The notes beneath the pieces are model-generated. The model had not been told where the DNA came from. It searched no databases and was given only the letters and a program-made list of their open reading frames with translations. From IMG/VR virus record IMGVR_UViG_2579778633_000006: a DNA stretch of 16,004 nt; one strand, 5' to 3'. Below, piece by piece: positions 2,354 through 15,628 of this stretch (position 1 is the first letter of the stretch; each line of letters starts with the position of its first letter). Source of the stretch: a virus (Duplodnaviria > Heunggongvirae > Uroviricota > Caudoviricetes). The position numbers and the translations under genes are program-made.

Positions 2354-3178
2354 TCAGGCGGTGAAAGTACCAATAAAGGTTTCTACTTTGCTGTCTTTGA
2401 ATTTCTCAACAAGCAGATCACGAAATTCGTTAGCCATTTCTTCCTGTACCGCTTCCAGCTGAATAATGCGCAGAACCAGTACAGGACGATCGCCAGTGAT
2501 AATGCTGAGGCGTAATTTAAACGGACGTTCTTTCAGACCTTCAAACGGAACGCATTTAAATTCAAATGCCACTGGCATAATGTCTTTGGTCTTCGCTTCG
2601 ACAGACTCCATCAGGGAGCGTTTGCCGCTGAAGTCATTATCTTCAAAATCAGCGGTCTGGTTCGCTTCAATTGTGATTTTACGGATCGCCGCAGCCGCTT
2701 TGGTTGCCTGAATGGCGTCACCATTAGCATCAAAGCCCACAAGGTAGTCGGCCCAGTCTTCAATCCATTCTGCCAGTGACTTCTGGGAGTTACGCTCGCC
2801 GTTAACAGACAACAGAGCAGAGAACGGTGCTGTCTTTTTCAGTTTGAGAGTGGCGGTGTTATCTGCGTGACCTGGTTCATCAATAGTACCCAGGTTAAGC
2901 ACACTGACGGCACGCATATTATCGGCATCGATAAAGCAGCGGGTGCCTTCATCTGCAAGAACTTTAGAATAACGGGTAAAGTCATCGATGCTGGCAGTGG
3001 AAAGCGCACCACGGAAACGGAAGCGATTTAAATTAAATTTTTCCAGATCATGAATGCGGAAATTCTCAGGCAATGCCACAGCATCGGCACCAATCTTACT
3101 GATAATTTCATTAACACCCTGAGCAGAAATAAGGGCATGGATTTGATTAATTGCGGTTGCGTCTAAGTTCTGAGACAT
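2354..3178 (-). CDS. YfdQ-like (DUF2303) prophage protein
   Basis: 274-aa ORF with E. coli-typical codon usage; GAGGA RBS ~7 nt upstream of ATG at 3176-3178; length and N-terminus match my recollection of CPS-53 YfdQ-family proteins. Confidence 0.5.
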
Positions 3179-5833: not shown

Positions 5834-6666
5834 ACAGTTTAACGGCAAATAACCGTTTGTCGCAACAGCTGGTGGTCAGTGTCGCTGAACACCTGTTGTT
5901 ACGGCATGAATGCAGATTACCAAATCACCTGGCTGTAAGTAACCACAGAGAACTTTACCTGACTGTGGGGGGCGAGTTGTGCAGGAACTTAACCGCTGGT
6001 TTCGTGACGGAAGAGGGCTTTATGTCCATGTTATTCGTTGGGAGCCAGAAACACAGCGCGTTATCTATCTTCGCAAAGACTACCCGCATGAGTGCTTTAG
6101 TCCTTTGTGGAAATTCAGGCGTGATTTTGTTGAGTGTGAAGGACCACCAGCACATTGATTCTGCCATTCCGGGACGTTACACTGTTCAGGCACCTTATAA
6201 AGCGGGTGCCGGGATTGGCGTCCTGGAAATGTTATCGGCGATATATGACGCGCCAGCGTCTTTTTTATCGTCTGCGTCTGTGCACACCCAAATTATGGTG
6301 GGCTGGACGGGGGCACCGAAAGGTGCGCCGGTTTCCGATAACGCCGGTTACGCCAACCCCGTTCAGTTCACCACCAGCGAAATTGGCGTTTCCGGTGGTG
6401 AAGGTAATTCACTGTTATCGGAGGCTGCCATCATGGCTACTGTCCCAGCCCTCACTCGTCTGAATGATGAAGACTTACATAAACTCAGTTATGTAACAAC
6501 TGCACTACGTGCTCTGCGCAAGGTAACTCTTTCGGATCCGCAGGCGCATCAAGTTCTGGTAGAAACCCTTCTTAACTTGCAGGCTGAACGTATTCGTCTG
6601 GCGGATAAGGCTAATTTTCATATTCACCGTCTCCTGAATATCAGCGGAGGGCATCGTCATGCTTAA
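5830..6666 (+). CDS. Hypothetical protein (278 aa)
   Basis: Translationally coupled at both ends (ATGA overlap at 5830; ATG 6659 overlaps stop 6664-6666, AGCGGAGGG RBS); E. coli-like codon usage. No recognisable motif. Confidence 0.45.
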   Translation: MNSLTANNRLSQQLVVSVAEHLLLRHECRLPNHLAVSNHRELYLTVGGELCRNLTAGFVTEEGFMSMLFVGSQKHSALSIFAKTTRMSALVLCGNSGVILLSVKDHQHIDSAIPGRYTVQAPYKAGAGIGVLEMLSAIYDAPASFLSSASVHTQIMVGWTGAPKGAPVSDNAGYANPVQFTTSEIGVSGGEGNSLLSEAAIMATVPALTRLNDEDLHKLSYVTTALRALRKVTLSDPQAHQVLVETLLNLQAERIRLADKANFHIHRLLNISGGHRHA

Positions 6667-6895: not shown

Positions 6896-7710
6896 GTATG
6901 GAGCTGATGGTTAAAGCGATGAAAATTCGAGTGGGTAATCCATTGCGAAAACTGGTTCTGATCAAGCTGGCTGATAATGCCAGCGATCAGGGTGAGTGCT
7001 GGCCCAGCTACCAGCATATTGCTGACCAGTGCGAGATTAGCAAACGTTCTGTGATGAATCATATTGCGGCCCTTTGTGAGTCCGGGCTGGTAAAAAAAGT
7101 CACCCGGAAAGGTGAAAAAGGTAACTCAAGTAATATCTATCTCCTTCATCTGGATGGTGCAGGAGATTCACTAGGGGGTAGTGCAAATAATTCACTATCT
7201 GGTGCAGCAAATTCACCAGGTAGTGCAGGAGTTGCACCAGGGGGTAGTGCAGGAGATTCACCCAGAACCAGTCACTCTTTTGAACCAGTCAAAGAACCAG
7301 TCAATGAACCAATAGCTGTTGGTGCATCAGTTGATGAGTCCGTGCGAGTTCGTTCAAACCGACCGGAATACTCTCCGGAGTTTGAGCAGGCATGGCTGGT
7401 ATATCCCAAACGTGCTGGTGGCAATTCAAAATCTGCAGCCTTCAAAGCCTGGAAAGCCCGTTTGAATGAGGGGGTAAACCCCGAAACCATGCTGGAAGGT
7501 GTGAAACGCTACGCGGGCTGGGTATCTGCGATGGGTAACAGCGGCACACAATTTGTGAAACAGGCTGTCACGTTCTTTGGTCCGGATCGTCATTTCGAAG
7601 AATCCTGGGAAGTTCCTGCGGTATCTGCAGCCAGACGCGAGGACCCGTACTTCAAAGCCAGTTACGACAACGTGGACTACAGCCAGATCCCGGCAGGATT
7701 CAGGGGGTGA
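6892..7710 (+). CDS. Putative replication protein with N-terminal HTH (winged-helix, HTH_36-like) domain and Gly/Ser-rich linker
   Basis: N-terminal LRKLVLIKLADNASDQGECWPSYQHIADQCEISKRSVMNHIAALCESGLV resembles the HTH found in phage replication initiators; low-complexity linker; C-terminal Trp/Tyr-rich domain. Confidence 0.5.
   Translation: MSMELMVKAMKIRVGNPLRKLVLIKLADNASDQGECWPSYQHIADQCEISKRSVMNHIAALCESGLVKKVTRKGEKGNSSNIYLLHLDGAGDSLGGSANNSLSGAANSPGSAGVAPGGSAGDSPRTSHSFEPVKEPVNEPIAVGASVDESVRVRSNRPEYSPEFEQAWLVYPKRAGGNSKSAAFKAWKARLNEGVNPETMLEGVKRYAGWVSAMGNSGTQFVKQAVTFFGPDRHFEESWEVPAVSAARREDPYFKASYDNVDYSQIPAGFRG
7156..7263 (+). repeat. In-frame imperfect DNA repeats encoding a Gly/Ser/Ala-rich linker
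   Basis: GTGCAGGAGATTCAC occurs at 7157-7171 and 7247-7261; AGGGGGTAGTGCA at 7173-7185 and 7239-7251; encodes AGDSLGGSANNSLSGAANSPGSAGVAPGGSAGDSP. Confidence 0.5.
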
Positions 7711-8141
7711 TCATGAGTCTTTTGAATGAAGTTCAGAAATACATTGAAGCCCATCCGGGGTGTACTTCCGGAGACATTGCGGATGCTTTTGCAGGTTACT
7801 CACGGCAGCGCGTTCTGCAGTCAGCAAGCAAGTTACGTCAGAGTGGTCGTGTGGCTCACCGTTGTGAAGGGGATACACGCAGACATTTCCCGCGCCTGAC
7901 TGAGAGAGCGCAGGAGGCGGAACCGCAACCAGTTCGTGAAACCAGACCTGTGCGCAATTTCTATGTCGGCACTAACGATCCCCGGGTGATTTTGTGCCTG
8001 ACCCGCCAGGCGGAAGAACTGGAGTCGAGGGGCTTATACCGTCGTGCTGCAACGGTGTGGATGGCGGCATTCCGTGAAAGCCACTCCCAGCCAGAGCGAA
8101 ACAATTTTCTTGCGCGTCGTGAAGGCCGCAAAAACGTCTGA
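7707..8141 (+). CDS. PerC-family-like transcriptional regulator (C-terminal GLYRRAATVW motif), N-terminal winged-helix-like extension
   Basis: 144-aa ORF with ATGA overlap to upstream gene; C-terminal LESRGLYRRAATVWMAAF resembles the LE..GLWRRAA.RW signature I recall for PerC/Pch proteins. Confidence 0.45.
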   Translation: MIMSLLNEVQKYIEAHPGCTSGDIADAFAGYSRQRVLQSASKLRQSGRVAHRCEGDTRRHFPRLTERAQEAEPQPVRETRPVRNFYVGTNDPRVILCLTRQAEELESRGLYRRAATVWMAAFRESHSQPERNNFLARREGRKNV

Positions 8142-10536
8142 GACGAATGCGGATAACAGCGCACAGGCGGCAGCGGCCTCACAAACTGCATCGGCAAACT
8201 CCGCGACAGCAGCCAAAAAATCAGAAACCAACGCGAAAAATAGCGAGGCAGCAGCAAAGAGCAGCGAAACTAATGCTAAATCCAGTGAAACAAACGCGGC
8301 GAAATCTGCAGCGGACGCACTTAATTATCGCAACCAGGCACAATCCGTTGTTGGTAACAATATTGGTCTTGGTGAAGTTGCTATGACCTGCACTGATATC
8401 TCTGTTGAGCCATCAGGTTATATTGGATTTATCAGGATTTACATCTCAGCGAAAGGTTATCCATCAGTAGCGTCTAGTGCCGGGGATAATCTTATTTCTG
8501 GTTATATAGTTAGATCAGAAGTGTCAACAAAAAGATATTCCGGTCTATTTGTTGGTTCAGATACAAAATCATTGTATTCGTACATTTACAGCCAAAGTTC
8601 TGGCCCGCAATGGATACGTCATACCCGCAGAGATGAATTAAGCCGCTTTGGTCAAAATGAATCAACAACTCGTATGTATGGTCCAACTGGTGATCGTTTC
8701 TTTGAAATCCATACTAACGGGAGTTGGGGGGTTTATGATTCTTCTTCTGGACAATGGTCTCCGTTAGGTTTAGCCCAGGGTGGTACTGGTGGAAGAACTA
8801 TCGAGCAAGCACGTGCGAACTTGCGGGTAATGTATGAGCAAAAAGCTGGCCTTGCTAATACTGACCTAAACACCCTTACCGGTGAATATTCTGGTTTCTA
8901 TCAACAACCAACGAGCGCTTACGCAACAGAAGAATTAAATTACCCAATCGGTCTGGCGGGCGCTTTAATAGTGCTCCAAACGAGAGCCAACACTGCTTCT
9001 TCCTGCGTTCAGGTGTACCACCCTTATAATAATCCGGGAATTACTTATAGACGAATATATGAAGGAGGTAGCGGTACCTGGTCTGAATGGAAGAGAGATG
9101 TATCAACAGAAAGGGTTGAAGAGGGAAAAGAAACAACTTACGTATATTCTACGTATTCTTCAGGCGCACCACGCTTACAGGTTTCCAAATCTGGTTTGTG
9201 GGGTTGTCATAATGGCACTGGCTGGTTGCCATTAGCTGTTGGGCAAGGAGGTACAGGTGCGACAACAGTAGAAGATGCGCGAAACAACTTAAGTCTTGGC
9301 GAAAGTAGCGCAGTTAAATTTAAAAACCTTACTTTAACCGAAGCGCTCGACACGACATTAGGACTGCTTACAAAAACAGGACGAGACTGGAACGCTCAGC
9401 ATACTGATAACGTCGACAAATTTAGACCAATTGCAGGCAGTACAAACGGCCCGGCAGGCTCTATGGTTCTTGGCGGCATTCATGTTCAATTTAGTAAAAA
9501 TTATGCTGTGCAGTTCGGAGGCCGCAATTCCGGTTTTTGGGGAAGAACAATTGAAAATGGAACGACGCAGGAATGGAAGAAATTACTAACAGTAGACGAT
9601 CTCAATTCATCTACCGCTCTTGCTGTCAGGTCATTAACCACATCTAACCCGATAAAATCTGGCGGAGGGCGGATTGATGTCCTTGGAAGCACGTCAGACT
9701 ATAGCAAAATGGATTGCTTTGTACGTGGGTTTGATAGCACCGGTAATTCTCTCGCGTGGGCGTTGGGTTCATCAGTCGGCGTAAGTAAGATGCTGTCGCT
9801 AAAAAATTTCTTTAGCGGAGCTGAGATACTGCTAAATGGTAATGACGGCGCGGTTCAACTCAAAACAGGTGCTGTTAACGGTGCTAAAGCGCAGGCGCTC
9901 ACTATCAACAAGGATGAGGTTAACTCAACTGTTGATTTAACTCTTACAAAACAAACAGGGACTGGCAATCGTTTTGTTTTACAGAACTTAGGTAATACAG
10001 AACTACCATTTGCTGTCAAGGTGTGGGGTTCAGGTGATCGACAAAACGTTTTTGAGGTTGGAACGTCTGCCGCGTATCTGTTTTATGCTCAAAAAACATC
10101 GTCAGGTCAGCTGTTTGATGTAAACGGTGCTATTAACTGTACAACACTGAATCAGTTATCAGACCGCGAGCTGAAAGACAATATTCAGATTATCAGTGAC
10201 GCAACCGAAGCTATCCGTAAAATGAACGGGTACACCTACACACTTAAGGAAAACGGACTGCCTTACGCTGGTGTTATTGCACAGGAAGCAATGGAGGCAA
10301 TACCGGAAGCGGTAGGCTCATTCACTCATTACGGTAAAGAGTTGCAGGGACCAACGGTTGACGGCAATGAATTACGTGAAGAAACACGTTATCTGAATGT
10401 TGACTACGCCGCCGTGACGGGCTTACTTGTTCAGGTCGCCCGTGAAACAGATGATCGCGTTACCGCGCTGGAAGAAGAAAACGCAGAATTAAAACAAAGA
10501 TTATCTGCAATTGAGGCGGCGCTTGCCTCTAAATAA
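8125..10536 (+). pseudogene. Tail-fibre gene remnant, 5'-truncated (no start codon in the homologous region), with intact C-terminal intramolecular-chaperone-like domain
   Basis: KTSETNA/KSSETNA repeats as in lambda Stf-type fibres; two GQGGTGA-T-E-AR-NL tail-fibre repeats; C-terminal SDRELKDNI...NGYTY...AELKQRL resembles the autocleaving chaperone domain of fibres/tailspikes. Fibre homology begins in the +1 frame inside the last codons of the PerC-like gene; the only in-frame start upstream is a GTG at 8044 translating unrelated sequence. Confidence 0.6.
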
Positions 10537-10542
10537 TATTAA

Positions 10543-10568
10543 GGGGCTGTGCGCCCCGTTTTATTGGG
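10543..10568 (+). terminator. Intrinsic terminator after tail-fibre ORF
   Basis: GGGGC(10543-10547)-tgtgc-GCCCC(10553-10557) followed by GTTTTATTGGG. Confidence 0.5.
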
Positions 10569-10572
10569 TAGG

Positions 10573-10866
10573 ATGAAAATGGGTATAACACCTTTCCTTC
10601 ATGCACTTTGTGCTGTGGCTGCGCAGATACTGGTGGGGCTTTTTACCGGAAACTGGGTTTACGGAGCGATAGCCAGTTGTACGTTCTTCATTGCGGGCGA
10701 ACACACCCAAGCATAATATCGCTGGATTGAAATGTTCGGGCATGGCAAGCGGATTAACATGCCGTGGTGGGGCGGTTTTGATCCACGCGCATGGGATGTG
10801 GCAAGCCTGATGGATTTTGCTGTGCCGATGGTAGCGTGTCTTCTGATCTGGCTGTTGATCCGTTGA
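10573..10866 (+). pseudogene. Small membrane-protein gene interrupted by an in-frame TAA (10714-10716)
   Basis: Single reading frame from ATG 10573 to TGA 10864-10866 encodes MKMGITPFLHALCAVAAQILVGLFTGNWVYGAIASCTFFIAGEHTQA * YRWIEMFGHGKRINMPWWGGFDPRAWDVASLMDFAVPMVACLLIWLLIR; both halves look protein-like and are in the same frame. Confidence 0.35.
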
Positions 10867-10870
10867 ACAT

Positions 10871-10915
10871 AAAAAGCCGCAGCAACTTGCCATGGCAGGA
10901 TACTGCGGCTGGTTT
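10871..10915. terminator. Bidirectional intrinsic terminator between the small membrane pseudogene and the RT operon
   Basis: Stem GCCGCAG(10876-10882)/CTGCGGC(10903-10909); A5 on plus strand upstream gives a U5 run after the stem on the minus-strand (RT operon) transcript; TGGTTTGTG after the stem on the plus strand. Confidence 0.45.
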
Positions 10916-10973
10916 GTGAGTTTAAATAGTGTGTTTATTGCGATATATTTTAATGACTTAATGGATTACATAT

Positions 10974-12350
10974 CTATGATATTCCTGAAATATCCTCTTC
11001 AAGCTCTTTTACTGATTTCGCAATTTTAAATTTAAACTTCCTCTCTATTTCACTATTGCTAAGTTTTTTTTCCTTCTCTTTACCTATCCACATAGAAACA
11101 AGTTCTCGTTTCTGAGATATATGTAGATTGTCAAAGTTAGGTATGTATTTAAAAGTCTCCGCTCTACCTCTGCGGAGTTCATAGAAAGTTTTAATCAAAG
11201 ATTTTGGTTTTATTTCTGATGAAAGGCCGAATCGGCGGATAAGATTATTGATAGTATGATTAACAGAGCGAAGTTGAGCTGTTGAGGTTATTTGTGAGAA
11301 GTACGATACCCATCCCAATCGTTTACCTTCAAACACACATCCCGTAATTCTGAGATTTAGTTTCCACTGACAATATGCAACAGCTCGTTCTTTATCACGC
11401 TTACTTTTAGCTTGTAGTAGAGCGTGCCTATATGCAGTAAAAATTTTTGCTAAGGATGACTCAAATCTAAGAATGCTCTCATGTTTTATCAATAATTCTC
11501 GATTTTCTATGTGGTATCCCAAAAAGTTAAAACTTTCATCCAAACTGCCTACTTTGGATTTTGAGTTCTCTTCATTTAATGGATGTGGGTTTAAATTTAA
11601 TGATTGAAGCTTATCAATGATATGAGAAGCTATTTTTGTTGCTTGATATTTTGGTGTTAAAATAAGAATGTCATCAACGTATCGCATGTACCATATGTCA
11701 TGCATTTTATTGATTTCATCATCGAAATTAGATAGTGATATTTCAGCTAAAATGTTTGATATCGCTAATCCCTGAGGTACTCCTCTGGTATTATTAGGGA
11801 TACCTTTGCTTCCTGTGGTTCCACTTACAGTAGGCACGATTAATGATGATGTTATTAACTGTCTAATTTCTTTTTTTCTAATTTTATTTTTTATTGCATT
11901 AATTATCAATTTATGTTCAATTGAAGGATAGAAACTTTTAAGATCTATTTTTGCATATTCAGCATATAGACTGTTGTTTAATGCTTCTTTCAATGAGTCA
12001 ATTACTGTATGTGGTAGTTTTAATCTGGACTTAGGATATATTTCCGTAAGGCATTCACAGAGAGCTCTAAGAGTAATTCTGTCCCTAGCAGTTGGTATGG
12101 AAATCTGTCTGGGTGTAGAGTTAGCGCCTTTAGATATTAATTTTTCTTTATATGCTGTAAATTTGTAATTGCCAGAATTAACCTTTTCAAAAATGAAAGT
12201 GATCTCATTTTTTATTGTCAAATCAAGTTTTGATGGGCGAATCCGATCTATGCCAATCGCTCCTGATTCTTTGATTTTTTCAGAGTATACTTTTAGAAGA
12301 TTTTTTTTCGAGAATGACTTTTTAAAAATTCTGCTTGCAGTCATAGTCAA
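10974..12350 (-). CDS. Reverse transcriptase (bacterial defence-type RT; retron-like vs UG/Abi-like unresolved), 458 aa with C-terminal extension
   Basis: RT motifs in order: GIDRIRP; RQISIPTARDRITLRAL; IDLKSFYPSIEH; GVPQGLAISNILAEI; YMRYVDDILIL (YxDD catalytic box); FNFLGYHI. AT-rich gene; start overlaps upstream TM-protein gene by ~29 nt. Confidence 0.85.
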   Translation of the reverse strand: MTMTASRIFKKSFSKKNLLKVYSEKIKESGAIGIDRIRPSKLDLTIKNEITFIFEKVNSGNYKFTAYKEKLISKGANSTPRQISIPTARDRITLRALCECLTEIYPKSRLKLPHTVIDSLKEALNNSLYAEYAKIDLKSFYPSIEHKLIINAIKNKIRKKEIRQLITSSLIVPTVSGTTGSKGIPNNTRGVPQGLAISNILAEISLSNFDDEINKMHDIWYMRYVDDILILTPKYQATKIASHIIDKLQSLNLNPHPLNEENSKSKVGSLDESFNFLGYHIENRELLIKHESILRFESSLAKIFTAYRHALLQAKSKRDKERAVAYCQWKLNLRITGCVFEGKRLGWVSYFSQITSTAQLRSVNHTINNLIRRFGLSSEIKPKSLIKTFYELRRGRAETFKYIPNFDNLHISQKRELVSMWIGKEKEKKLSNSEIERKFKFKIAKSVKELEEDISGIS

Positions 12351-12873
12351 TCCAAAGATATATTAATGGGAGTATATAAAGTGCGGCAGTAATAAATATT
12401 CGAAGTAATATCCATAAAATAACAATTATTTTTTCTTTTTGTGTGGGGATCCTCGTCTTAAGTCCAACTTGAGTTACCCTTGAAATTTTATCATCTATGT
12501 CACGGTGATTCTCAACCTCATTGAGCAAATTAAAATATTTTTCTTTCTGTTCAAGAGATAACTGTTGACTGGTGGTAATGTCAAAATAGAGTCGCTGTAG
12601 TGCAATATAATTCCTTCTCATGGCTATTGCTCGACCACGAAAATCTAGGTTAGATACGATCAGAGAAATACCCAGTAGAGCCACTGAAAGTATCGCCGCA
12701 ACGACATCTGTATTATCTCCTAGAACCTTTGGAAATCGCAACGTTACAATTGAAAGTACCGCACTCAATATAGCATACCAAACGAGGATAAATTGAGAGT
12801 GTTTTTCAAGCCATTCTAGTCGATGGTGCGCTTGGATACGTGCTTTATATGTAAACCAAATATTGTCATGCAT
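12322..12873 (-). CDS. Multi-TM small protein, SLATT-like (putative membrane effector of the RT system)
   Basis: 183-aa ORF; AGGA RBS 5-8 nt upstream of ATG 12871-12873; hydrophobic helices FILVWYAILSAVLSIVTL, VVAAILSVALLGISLIVS and C-terminal IIVILWILLRIFITAALYILPLIYLW separated by a charged helical region; 3' end overlaps RT start. Confidence 0.6.
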   Translation of the reverse strand: MHDNIWFTYKARIQAHHRLEWLEKHSQFILVWYAILSAVLSIVTLRFPKVLGDNTDVVAAILSVALLGISLIVSNLDFRGRAIAMRRNYIALQRLYFDITTSQQLSLEQKEKYFNLLNEVENHRDIDDKISRVTQVGLKTRIPTQKEKIIVILWILLRIFITAALYILPLIYLWIDYDCKQNF

Positions 12874-12893
12874 AAAAGATCCTTTTTAAAAGC

Positions 12894-13028
12894 GGAAGGG
12901 GCAGGATATATTGGAACCGTTGAACATCCTGCCCGGCAGGATCAGTGAGCATAAGCTCAACAGTAAAATATTACTGTTCATTATCAGAGCCGCCCTTGCA
13001 TGCGCAAGAGGAAAAACCTGCCCCATCC
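12894..13028 (-). other. Palindrome/inverted-repeat-rich non-coding region upstream of the TM-RT operon (candidate structured ncRNA and/or operator array)
   Basis: 12-bp flanking inverted repeat GGAAGGGGCAGG (12894-12905) vs CCTGCCCCATCC (13017-13028), 1 mismatch, 111 bp apart; perfect 17-bp palindrome ATCCTGCC-c-GGCAGGAT (12926-12942) plus an extra GGCAGGAT copy (12900-12907); CAGTA-aaatat-TACTG (12961-12976); CTTGC-atgc-GCAAG (12995-13008). Confidence 0.3.
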
Positions 13029-13095
13029 CTTTGAATTATTACAATTTAATGATCTTAAAGTCAATACAAGTGAATGGTGTCCAGAGATGATGAAC

Positions 13096-13344
13096 TTAAT
13101 GAACAAACCACTCGTCAGCAGACTCCCAGGTATCTTTCAGAGTCTCCTGAACAAAAGTTTTAGCTGAATCTTTATCAGCGGTGCGCGTAACAGAAAGGCC
13201 ATCGTTGCTGGTGGCTTTTACGATCACTTCTACATCGTCATAACGTTTACTGATGCGTCGGGTTAATTCTTCCTTTAACGCATCCACAGCACCGGTTGGC
13301 ATTTTAGTCATTTTTTCTTTGGCTATGCAGATTTCAATACGCAT
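13096..13344 (-). CDS. dinI: DinI-family protein (SOS-inducible RecA modulator homolog)
   Basis: 82-aa ORF; MRIE..IAK...GA.DAL..EL.RRI...LSV....QET...WESADEWFV match the E. coli DinI pattern as I recall it; two LexA boxes immediately upstream. Confidence 0.8.
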
Positions 13345-13358
13345 AAAAGTCCCCTACA

Positions 13359-13402
13359 CTGTATTTGTATACAGTATTATTTTTAACTGTATGGATAAAC
13401 AG
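13359..13402. promoter_or_regulatory. Two tandem LexA (SOS) boxes upstream of the dinI-family gene
   Basis: CTGT-ATTTGTAT-ACAG (13359-13374) and CTGT-ATGGATAA-ACAG (13387-13402); both fit CTGT-N8-ACAG; located 15-58 bp upstream of the dinI start, overlapping the 3' flank of the integrase stop. Confidence 0.7.
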
Positions 13403-13404
13403 TG

Positions 13405-14502
13405 TCAAGAGGTCTTATTTCTGCTCCTTTGGAGTTCTTCAAAACGATTATGTAAAGATTTCGGATACAGTTCGGTATATACCTGCCATAGCACGTTTAA
13501 TGAACGATGCCCTGTAACCTGAGCGACTTCCTCAATACTAAAACCAGCCTCAAATAAGCGACTTGCCCCTTCTCTACGCAAATCATGGTATCTCAGATCT
13601 TTAATACCTAATTTGCTTCTTACCCTCTGAAATCCTGCGGTAACAGAAGTGCTGTTATATGGAAAAATGAATTCTGATTTTTTGGGTTGTCGCTGGACGA
13701 TATCCCAGGCTTCCCCAAGCAAGGCAACTTTCATATGGTTGCCTTCCTTTTTACGTGGATCTTTCCTGTCTCTTACTAGTATAGATTTTTGTTCCTGGTC
13801 GAGATCTTCCCATCGTAACCGGCATACTTCTCCGATTCGCATACAGGACCACACAGAAAATTTGAGGATATCAACGAACGGAATTTTTGAGCATTTATGA
13901 GTAGATCGTTGTTGAAGGCCTTCAATGAGCATGTTCAGTTCATCAGATGCTGGTCTACGATTACGACGGTTTGATTTACCAATCAAACCGAGTTTAAGTA
14001 GATATGGACGAGCGCTTTTCGCCGGGTTTGATGTGTAATTGATTCCGTATACAGGTTTTGCCGCATCCAGAACACTGCCAAGATAACTAACATCGTGGCT
14101 GACTGTTGCTGGGCCTGCACCAGCGTTGTTTCTTAGCCTGCAATGTTCAATTACGTCATTTTCTGTCAGTTCAGATAGTTTGATCGCGGAGATGTCACTA
14201 TCCATAAGCAGTTCCAGCACATATCTTTTAGTACGGCCTGCTTTACCTCCGGCATTTGGGTCATTTAAATATTTGTGTAGTAAGTCACGGACTGTAAGTC
14301 CGTCAACAGCATTTGATGATGGAATGCCATATAGATCTAATTCCATCACTTTCTGTGCGCCCCATGTTTTGGCATGAGCATGTTTAGGGAATGTTTTGCT
14401 TTCCCTGTAAGTGATAACACCTTTTTCTTTGATAATCACATTACAGCGATAGCGTGGTGTGCCATCGGATTTTAGTCGTTTCTCTATGTTATAGTACGCC
14501 AT
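13405..14502 (-). CDS. int: Tyrosine-type site-specific integrase (phage integrase family), adjacent to and divergent from dusA
   Basis: 365-aa ORF; C-terminal catalytic signatures MRIGEVCRLRWEDLD (Arg), YHDLRREGASRL (HxxR), GHRSLNVLWQVYTEL (His/Trp and Tyr). Confidence 0.9.
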   Translation of the reverse strand: MAYYNIEKRLKSDGTPRYRCNVIIKEKGVITYRESKTFPKHAHAKTWGAQKVMELDLYGIPSSNAVDGLTVRDLLHKYLNDPNAGGKAGRTKRYVLELLMDSDISAIKLSELTENDVIEHCRLRNNAGAGPATVSHDVSYLGSVLDAAKPVYGINYTSNPAKSARPYLLKLGLIGKSNRRNRRPASDELNMLIEGLQQRSTHKCSKIPFVDILKFSVWSCMRIGEVCRLRWEDLDQEQKSILVRDRKDPRKKEGNHMKVALLGEAWDIVQRQPKKSEFIFPYNSTSVTAGFQRVRSKLGIKDLRYHDLRREGASRLFEAGFSIEEVAQVTGHRSLNVLWQVYTELYPKSLHNRFEELQRSRNKTS

Positions 14503-14590: not shown

Positions 14591-15628
14591 ATGCACGATA
14601 ATCCTGAAACACAGAAAACTAATCAAACCAGCGTGATGCCTGAAAAAACTGGCGCTTACTGGAGTTCTCGGTTTAGCATTGCTCCTATGCTCGACTGGAC
14701 GGACAGACATTGCCGCTATTTCTTGCGTCTGCTTTCCCGCAATACGTTGCTGTATACCGAAATGGTGACCACAGGGGCGATTATTCACGGTAAAGGTGAT
14801 TACCTGGCGTACAGTGAAGAAGAACATCCGGTAGCGTTGCAACTCGGCGGTAGCGATCCGGCGGCGCTGGCACAGTGTGCGAAGCTGGCAGAAGCGCGTG
14901 GATATGATGAGATCAACCTGAATGTCGGCTGCCCGTCTGACCGGGTGCAGAACGGCATGTTTGGTGCGTGTCTGATGGGTAATGCGCAGCTGGTTGCCGA
15001 CTGCGTGAAAGCGATGCGCGATGTGGTGTCGATTCCAGTGACGGTGAAAACGCGTATTGGCATCGATGACCAGGACAGCTATGAATTTCTCTGCGATTTC
15101 ATCAACACCGTTTCCGGCAAAGGCGAGTGTGAGATGTTTATCATCCACGCACGTAAAGCCTGGCTTTCGGGGTTAAGCCCGAAAGAAAACCGTGAAATCC
15201 CGCCGCTCGATTATCCGCGTGTGTATCAACTGAAGCGTGACTTTCCGCATCTGACAATGTCGATTAACGGTGGTATCAAGTCGCTGGAAGAGGCCAAAGC
15301 ACACCTGCAACATATGGATGGCGTGATGGTCGGGCGCGAGGCGTATCAGAATCCGGGTATTCTGGCGGCGGTAGACCGGGAGATCTTTGGTTCCTCGGAT
15401 ACCGATGCCGATCCAGTGGCGGTAGTGCGCGCCATGTATCCGTACATTGAGCGTGAACTCAGCCAGGGGACGTATCTCGGCCATATTACCCGGCATATGT
15501 TGGGCTTGTTCCAGGGTATTCCTGGCGCGCGGCAGTGGCGGCGTTATTTAAGTGAAAATGCCCATAAAGCGGGTGCAGACATTAATGTGCTGGAACACGC
15601 GCTCAAACTGGTGGCGGATAAGCGTTAA
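14591..15628 (+). CDS. dusA: tRNA-dihydrouridine synthase A
   Basis: 345-aa ORF with conserved Dus-family sequence ([30 protein letters not shown], catalytic Cys region); followed by pspG as in E. coli. The 5' end may be element-derived; true start may lie downstream of 14591. Confidence 0.9.

Follow-up and report, generated by a model that had tools for sequence, protein, structure and literature searches.

In gamma-proteobacteria, LexA recognizes a CTGT-N8-ACAG palindrome with an AT-rich centre, close to TACTGTATATATATACAGTA, and SOS promoters carrying at least two such boxes (those of lexA, recN, ydjM and the colicin genes) are repressed more tightly and induced later. DNA-damage-responsive regulators are also found with defence systems, where CapW, BrxR and CapH/CapP are dedicated to, and encoded with, the systems that they control. 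For prophage dinI genes, the closest described case is that of Gifsy-1, -2 and -3, whose dinI homologues are LexA-controlled and are induced by mitomycin C (PMC3121763) or nalidixic acid (PMC8072944). Gifsy dinI has only one box, and the operon that it heads runs on into an antirepressor and irsA (PMC3121763; PMC8072944). In Klebsiella, ChIP shows LexA bound at the chromosomal dinI, whose 3' end is the source of the processed sRNA DinR (PMC10907235); chromosomal dinI ends in a Rho-independent terminator according to the same paper. The EHEC papers that mention dinI refer to the chromosomal gene only.

The second relevant system is DRT10, a tripartite anti-phage system composed of a 137-143-nt ncRNA upstream of SLATT, SLATT itself and a reverse transcriptase (RT). 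The RT copies an A-B-A' template into tandem-repeat cDNA, and this synthesis is constitutive in the published systems; activity is modulated by the ssDNA exonuclease SbcB and triggered by a phage SSB-like protein (doi 10.1101/2025.10.16.682844; doi 10.64898/2026.04.29.721553). The terms dinI, LexA and SOS have zero occurrences in the DRT10 preprints of Tang et al. (2025) and Sanchez-Nieto et al. (2026).

The locus reported here brings these two systems side by side. It lies in a 16,004-nucleotide stretch of DNA (IMG/VR record IMGVR_UViG_2579778633_000006), analysed over its whole length and referred to as the window, which covers the right-hand end of a lambdoid prophage integrated at dusA, with dusA and then pspG beyond (Table 1). 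Just upstream of a dinI homologue, the original prediction had placed a pair of CTGT-N8-ACAG boxes 12 bp apart, and both are exact matches to this gamma-proteobacterial pattern; the 16-mers are separated by 12 nt, and their centres lie 28 bp apart. On the minus strand, the 20-mer of the proximal box 1 (13357-13376) is TACTGTATACAAATACAGTG and that of the distal box 2 (13385-13404) is CACTGTTTATCCATACAGTT, and the 60 nt upstream of the dinI start codon at 13344 read CTCTTGACA-CTGTTTATCCATACAG-TTAAAAATAATA-CTGTATACAAATACAG-TGTAGGGGACTTTT-ATG. The spacing differs from the 21 bp of lexA and from the overlapping boxes of colicin promoters.

Table 1. Coordinates of the features of the dinI-DRT10 locus and its surroundings, in window positions.
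Feature	Coordinates	Strand	Evidence
UG17 (DRT10) reverse transcriptase, 456 aa from ATG	10974..12344	-	PADLOC RT_UG17, 1.2e-158
SLATT_5 two-transmembrane effector, 183 aa	12322..12873	-	Pfam 1.3e-28; PADLOC RTasSLATT 1.5e-56
DRT10 ncRNA, predicted, ~140 nt	12890..13028	-	folding z = -3.6 vs shuffles; covariation
DRT10 own promoter, predicted	13035..13064	-	TTGACT, 18 nt, AATAAT, TG upstream of -10
dinI-family gene, 82 aa	13096..13344	-	Pfam PF06183 (DinI), 1.1e-19
LexA box 1 (proximal), predicted	13359..13374	-	pattern match; HI 3.9
Sigma-70 promoter of dinI, predicted	13379..13408	-	10/12 hexamer matches
LexA box 2 (distal), predicted	13387..13402	-	pattern match; HI 4.9
Tyrosine integrase of dusA-inserted prophage	13405..14502	-	
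dusA	14591..15628	+	

Box strength was examined with a heterology index (HI), in which lower values are nearer the LexA consensus. The matrix was built on 28 E. coli LexA sites, reportedly those listed in Lewis 1994 and Fernandez de Henestrosa 2000, and its absolute values are approximate; its K-12 dinI site is an exact match to the genome sequence. Matrix scoring had been proposed in the original prediction as a check, and on this approximate matrix both boxes fall in the range of strong E. coli SOS boxes (recA 4.5, sulA 3.9 and chromosomal dinI 4.2, compared with 3.9 for box 1 and 4.9 for box 2). The next best 20-mer in the window has an HI of 11.8, and none of 30 shuffles attained 4.9. By pattern alone, the window holds three CTGT-N8-ACAG matches against 0.21 expected from shuffles. 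The third, at 5933-5948, was rejected as a LexA site; because its HI lies outside the ten best of the window and it sits within an Ash-family ORF, it is probably a chance match.

Both boxes overlap the predicted core promoter of dinI. A perfect TTGACA (13408-13403), overlapping the stop codon of the integrase, forms the -35, and TAAAAA or AAAAAT (13385-13379) the -10. Box 2 occupies the 17-18 nt spacer between the two hexamers, and box 1 lies over the start site predicted near 13372. A Shine-Dalgarno sequence, AGGGGA, is found at 13350-13355, five nucleotides before the dinI ATG, and the DinI match of the product spans the whole domain (profile positions 1-63 of 63).

As in Gifsy (Lemire et al. 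2011; Mérida-Floriano et al. 2021), a prophage dinI homologue thus stands behind a promoter-overlapping LexA box, but there are two boxes here and one in Gifsy, and the gene lies at the int/att end, whereas Gifsy dinI follows the replication genes. Downstream, the Gifsy antirepressor and irsA give way to a defence system, DRT10; no antirepressor is present and the prophage repressor is of CI type with an S24 peptidase domain, which sets the locus apart from a Gifsy-type dinI-antirepressor operon, a type that goes with a non-cleavable repressor. Chromosomal dinI of K-12 is likewise a short gene, monocistronic in K-12, for a DinI family protein with an SOS box at its promoter, but it has, as the original prediction stated, only one box in the genome, CTGTATAAATAACCAG. 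Since high-affinity boxes overlap the promoter, their cores are invariant (see below) and the Gifsy experiments provide a precedent, the SOS control of this dinI-family gene that the original prediction proposed is well supported, and we consider it very likely by analogy with those prophages. While dinI and its promoter form a common, already sequenced prophage feature, and this site already carries the label 'promoter', with LexA unmentioned, in the GenBank record of phage mEp460, no description of the LexA operators of this module was found in the literature sources searched.

The dinI-plus-promoter module (13096-13411) is widespread, occurring in 1807 of 5426 complete E. coli genomes, with at most seven copies per genome, and in 103 phage records, among them mEp460, cdtI and many Stx1/Stx2 phages. 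In copies that differ in integrase and attachment site (dusA, prfC, yecD), the shared homology starts at about the -35 hexamer, and both boxes are kept in all of the 60-odd IMG/VR loci that include the upstream sequence. Among 24 haplotypes, a set that leaves out the decayed JLK-2012 copy, which introduced an alignment gap, none of the 16 CTGT/ACAG positions varies, compared with 26 of the 49 others (Fisher p = 7e-5); the variable positions include some in the -35 hexamer. Since the family is closely related, mostly 90-100% identical, this conservation is of limited independent weight. The twin-box layout is also found in the distant copies of PhiR12_1 (81% identity) and P-EibC (74%), with JLK-2012 carrying a decayed version of the region, while a single box occurs in one Klebsiella phage and at chromosomal dinI of K-12. 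These comparisons mark the twin layout as a fixed trait of this prophage family and the promoter-plus-dinI unit as a conserved end-module of E. coli lambdoid prophages, of the mEp460, cdtI and Stx-phage types.

What follows dinI differs from prophage to prophage. The cargo may be cdtABC, the type III secretion effectors espW/espM2/nleG, tail-fibre assembly genes, recombinases or DRT10, and the cargos other than DRT10 are often convergent with dinI, as with cdtABC, the tail fibre genes and espM2. Such a distribution points to a slot for variable cargo, flanked by the promoter-plus-dinI unit on one side and the tail-fibre genes on the other.

The prophage that carries the slot in this window has a CI-type S24 repressor, cII and Ash-family, DnaD-like and PerC-like genes. 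At 7707-10536, the PerC-like gene and the beginning of an 830-aa tail-fibre ORF with a C-terminal S74 chaperone domain overlap, and no lysis, head or tail genes are found between the two. Because of this overlap, the prophage appears to carry a large internal deletion and to be defective. Directly past the tail-fibre stop, and about 400 nt past the RT stop, lies a GC hairpin at 10543-10557 (GGGGCGCACAGCCCC) that is terminator-like on both strands and probably terminates both convergent transcription units. At the other end of the window, the plus strand of positions 1-1045 encodes a SocA/Panacea-domain protein (1-474, Pfam 5.9e-18) and, after it, a protein of 182 aa that is hydrophobic in its C-terminal part and matches no family; the two may be a Panacea-type toxin-antitoxin pair. 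A 278-aa minus-strand ORF at 1385-2221, between a PrtN-type excisionase gene (1079-1348) and a DUF2303 gene (2354-3178), had no Pfam or PADLOC match and may be a moron or defence gene.

The cassette behind dinI was identified by its protein matches and gene arrangement. It combines an RT of the UG17 class, matched over its full length by RT_UG17 and equal in length (456 aa) to its homologues, with an adjacent SLATT_5 gene that overlaps the RT ORF by 29 nt (RT counted from its TTG start) and a structured ncRNA upstream of SLATT, features that assign it to DRT10. The original prediction had described a candidate abortive-infection system; the word 'candidate' is too weak for a family, UG17/DRT10, in whose homologues anti-phage defence has been demonstrated experimentally. 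A P4-satellite or retron reading was ruled out by the PADLOC and Pfam matches, and the RT-SLATT system of UPEC H120 (Rousset et al.), with its opposite gene order, is a different one. The locus resembles published DRT10 in its SLATT-RT order, overlapping genes and ~140-nt ncRNA with a basal stem and four inner stem-loops; the putative template loop after its last stem-loop offers two candidate A-B-A' patterns. Unlike published DRT10, it follows a predicted SOS-controlled gene at a distance of 32 nt and without an intervening terminator. Among 53 DRT10 loci from other genomes, no dinI homologue was found within 3 kb, and in the 48 proteobacterial loci scanned, no LexA-like 20-mer with HI below 9.5 occurs in the 700 nt upstream of SLATT. 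DRT10 is therefore not generally tied to SOS.

The 222-nt gap between dinI and SLATT (12874-13095), whose content the original prediction missed, contains the conserved DRT10 promoter and ncRNA. The -35 of the promoter begins 32 nt past the dinI stop codon, its predicted start is near 13028, at the base of the long stem and the ncRNA 5' end, and across genera the -10 holds the same register relative to the ncRNA stem. The ncRNA has a basal stem, pairing 13027-13017 with 12905-12895, plus the four inner stem-loops. Since an Rfam scan of 10400-13500 gave no family match and DRT10 ncRNA has no Rfam family, support was sought in covariation. In an alignment of the regions upstream of SLATT from 19 genomes, the window included, the consensus has 35 pairs, 21 of them with compensatory changes; 96% of cells are paired, compared with about 50% when the partner is slid, and none of 500 shuffles matched the observed values. 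The template loop at 12906-12925, after the last stem-loop, reads GUUCAACGGUUCCAAUAUAU and offers two A-B-A' candidates, GUUC-AACG-GUUC (8-nt repeat) and CAA-CGGUUC-CAA (9-nt repeat), the latter pattern being positionally conserved in other genera. The predicted cDNA repeat would be CGTTGAAC (8 nt) or GAACCGTTG (9 nt), and neither the ncRNA of the window nor its predicted repeat has a match in the searched portion of the supplements of Tang et al. The palindrome AACAGTAA-N4-TTACTGTT at 12960-12979 is one of the ncRNA stem-loops and not a LexA-type site. The predicted 3' end of the ncRNA lies about 16-21 nt from the SLATT start codon, so SLATT and RT must be transcribed through it; we infer that strong termination occurs neither in the ncRNA nor anywhere else past the DRT10 start.

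The dinI gene and the cassette lie on the same strand, and a simple terminator scan found no hairpin-plus-T-run terminator on the minus strand between 13096 and 12873, which bears out the original prediction of no hairpin-plus-U-run terminator between the dinI stop and the same-strand TM-RT genes. Such a scan misses the long or mismatched hairpins found after dinI in other prophages, which folding detects. The dinI 3' region was classified in 80 sampled loci with other cargo. A conserved 3'UTR of about 68 nt follows the dinI stop in 68 of the 80, and in 66 of these 68 it is followed by a GC-rich hairpin (dG <= -12 kcal/mol). In the DRT10 lineage, homology ends directly at the dinI stop, and the segment with the 3'UTR and hairpin is wholly absent. 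The claim that a canonical terminator had been deleted was dropped, as a U-rich tail stands behind only about 20 of the 66 hairpins (including those of mEp460, the O111 prophage and cdtI); because the hairpin is often without a U-tract, its loss may change little. The 3'UTR and hairpin, the first ~110 nt after the dinI stop, are kept whatever cargo follows (loci L003, L004, L005 and most of L006-L085), and this 3'UTR could be the source of an sRNA like Klebsiella DinR (PMC10907235), or a recombination anchor.

This DRT10 is present in 188 complete E. coli genomes and is contiguous with dinI and the boxes in 182 of them, which reflects one ancestral event at the junction. E. coli AR434 (NZ_CP029122.1) matches the window at 100% identity over 12330-13411. 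The exceptions to contiguity include IS insertions in or beside the cassette, one 6 nt past the dinI stop in IMG/VR locus L056 and the other, ISKox3, within the matched stretch in NZ_CM151387.1 (H1), both of which are natural breaks of any read-through. As for a single dinI-DRT10 operon, the shared strand and the empty terminator scan agree with it, but the conserved promoter at 13064-13035 is internal to such a unit.

One DRT10-carrying lineage, of 54-75 complete genomes, has a frameshifted dinI pseudogene whose stop codon is also lost; it is found at yecD (L002, L144, L145, L147), with a related form at prfC (L146). The dead dinI carries 22 substitutions and 9 indel columns in 250 nt against 7 substitutions in 271 nt of flanking sequence (p = 0.002), a divergence that could reflect a mosaic allele. 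The -35, the -10 and both boxes are intact, and the CCAG in box 2 of one variant still makes a legitimate box. This retention hints at selection on the promoter apart from DinI, although the lineage is essentially one clone.

Taken together, these observations are best accommodated by the following explanation, which as a whole we regard as likely. Both boxes would be operators of a LexA-repressed promoter driving the prophage dinI homologue, with one LexA dimer bound between the -35 and the -10 and a second one on the start site, keeping the promoter tightly shut in undamaged cells. RecA-stimulated LexA cleavage would lower the level of LexA until the promoter fires, presumably late, as multi-operator SOS genes do. 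The unit is the end-module bordering a cargo slot, in which DRT10 is expressed from its own promoter; because DRT10 stands in place of the 3'UTR and hairpin, a share of the dinI transcripts induced by SOS probably runs on into the cassette and would add a damage-inducible component to its expression. In comparison with CapW, BrxR and CapH/CapP, any damage coupling would here pass through host LexA and the putative read-through. What the analysis shows directly is the sequence features and their conservation, whereas LexA binding, SOS inducibility, late timing and, above all, read-through are inferences.

Several other explanations were weighed against this one. That both palindromes are chance occurrences or non-LexA elements, for instance integrase- or att-related sites, draws on their position, directly beside the stop codon of the integrase and, elsewhere, beside the end of the prophage. 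However, only 0.21 matches are expected per window, the two indices stand far below the next best 20-mer (3.9 and 4.9 against 11.8), the cores are invariant and the position of the boxes relative to the -35 and -10 stays constant whatever the integrase or att site; we find this reading barely credible. A different possibility is that SOS transcription from the dinI promoter interferes with DRT10, through 5'-extended ncRNA precursors and a shifted ratio of ncRNA to SLATT/RT, which could damp self-triggering at prophage induction. The DRT10 -35 does lie only 32 nt past the dinI stop, and the DRT10 start site falls on the 5' end of the mature ncRNA. This scheme is purely inferential, however, and since the prophage looks defective, self-protection on induction is moot; we consider it improbable.

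A more serious contender is that dinI is monocistronic and DRT10 fully autonomous, the two being neighbours by way of the cargo hotspot, with Rho or the dominance of the DRT10 promoter leaving SOS without meaningful effect on the cassette. The DRT10 promoter and ncRNA are preserved in other genera, where neither dinI nor LexA boxes accompany them, and cargo of other kinds is often oriented convergently to dinI. The DRT10 papers describe cDNA synthesis as constitutive and make no mention of dinI, LexA or SOS. Moreover, the 68 untranslated nt after the dinI stop are G-poor and, by inspection, unstructured, and Rho-dependent termination could occur there. Against this stand the empty terminator scan and the absence of the usual 3'UTR and hairpin, the need for transcription to cross the ncRNA to make SLATT and RT, and the boxes retained beside a dead dinI. 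We give full autonomy slightly less than an even chance. Read-through from the putative SOS promoter into DRT10 is plausible given the shared strand, the lack of an intrinsic terminator, the loss of the 3'UTR and hairpin and an ncRNA that must itself be transcribed through. A functional SOS link is open to doubt because DRT10 has a strong-looking promoter of its own and is autonomous elsewhere, its cDNA synthesis is constitutive, the junction reflects a single event, Rho may act and the lost hairpin is often non-canonical. A measurable LexA-dependent increase from read-through is thus possible, with the balance leaning somewhat against it.

The strongest form of the proposal is that the loss of the dinI 3'UTR and hairpin has placed DRT10 behind a doubly LexA-repressed promoter in about 3% of complete E. 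coli genomes, with DNA damage or prophage induction raising SLATT, RT and ncRNA precursor, and that selection for this has retained the promoter beside the dead dinI. We rate this combination as unlikely. If true, SOS signals would reach a defence system in which ssDNA metabolism already sets the threshold, through SbcB and SSB-like triggers.

LexA-controlled prophage dinI genes were known already, and the boxes themselves are unsurprising. What is new is a two-operator design fixed in a very common prophage end-module, carried by one third of complete E. coli genomes and including those of Stx and cdt phages, and a lineage in which the predicted SOS promoter points into DRT10 without a terminator. 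If the read-through is real, this locus would be a straightforward natural example of a reverse-transcriptase defence tuned by SOS signalling of the host, and it could explain strain-specific changes in toxicity or defence under DNA-damaging antibiotics.
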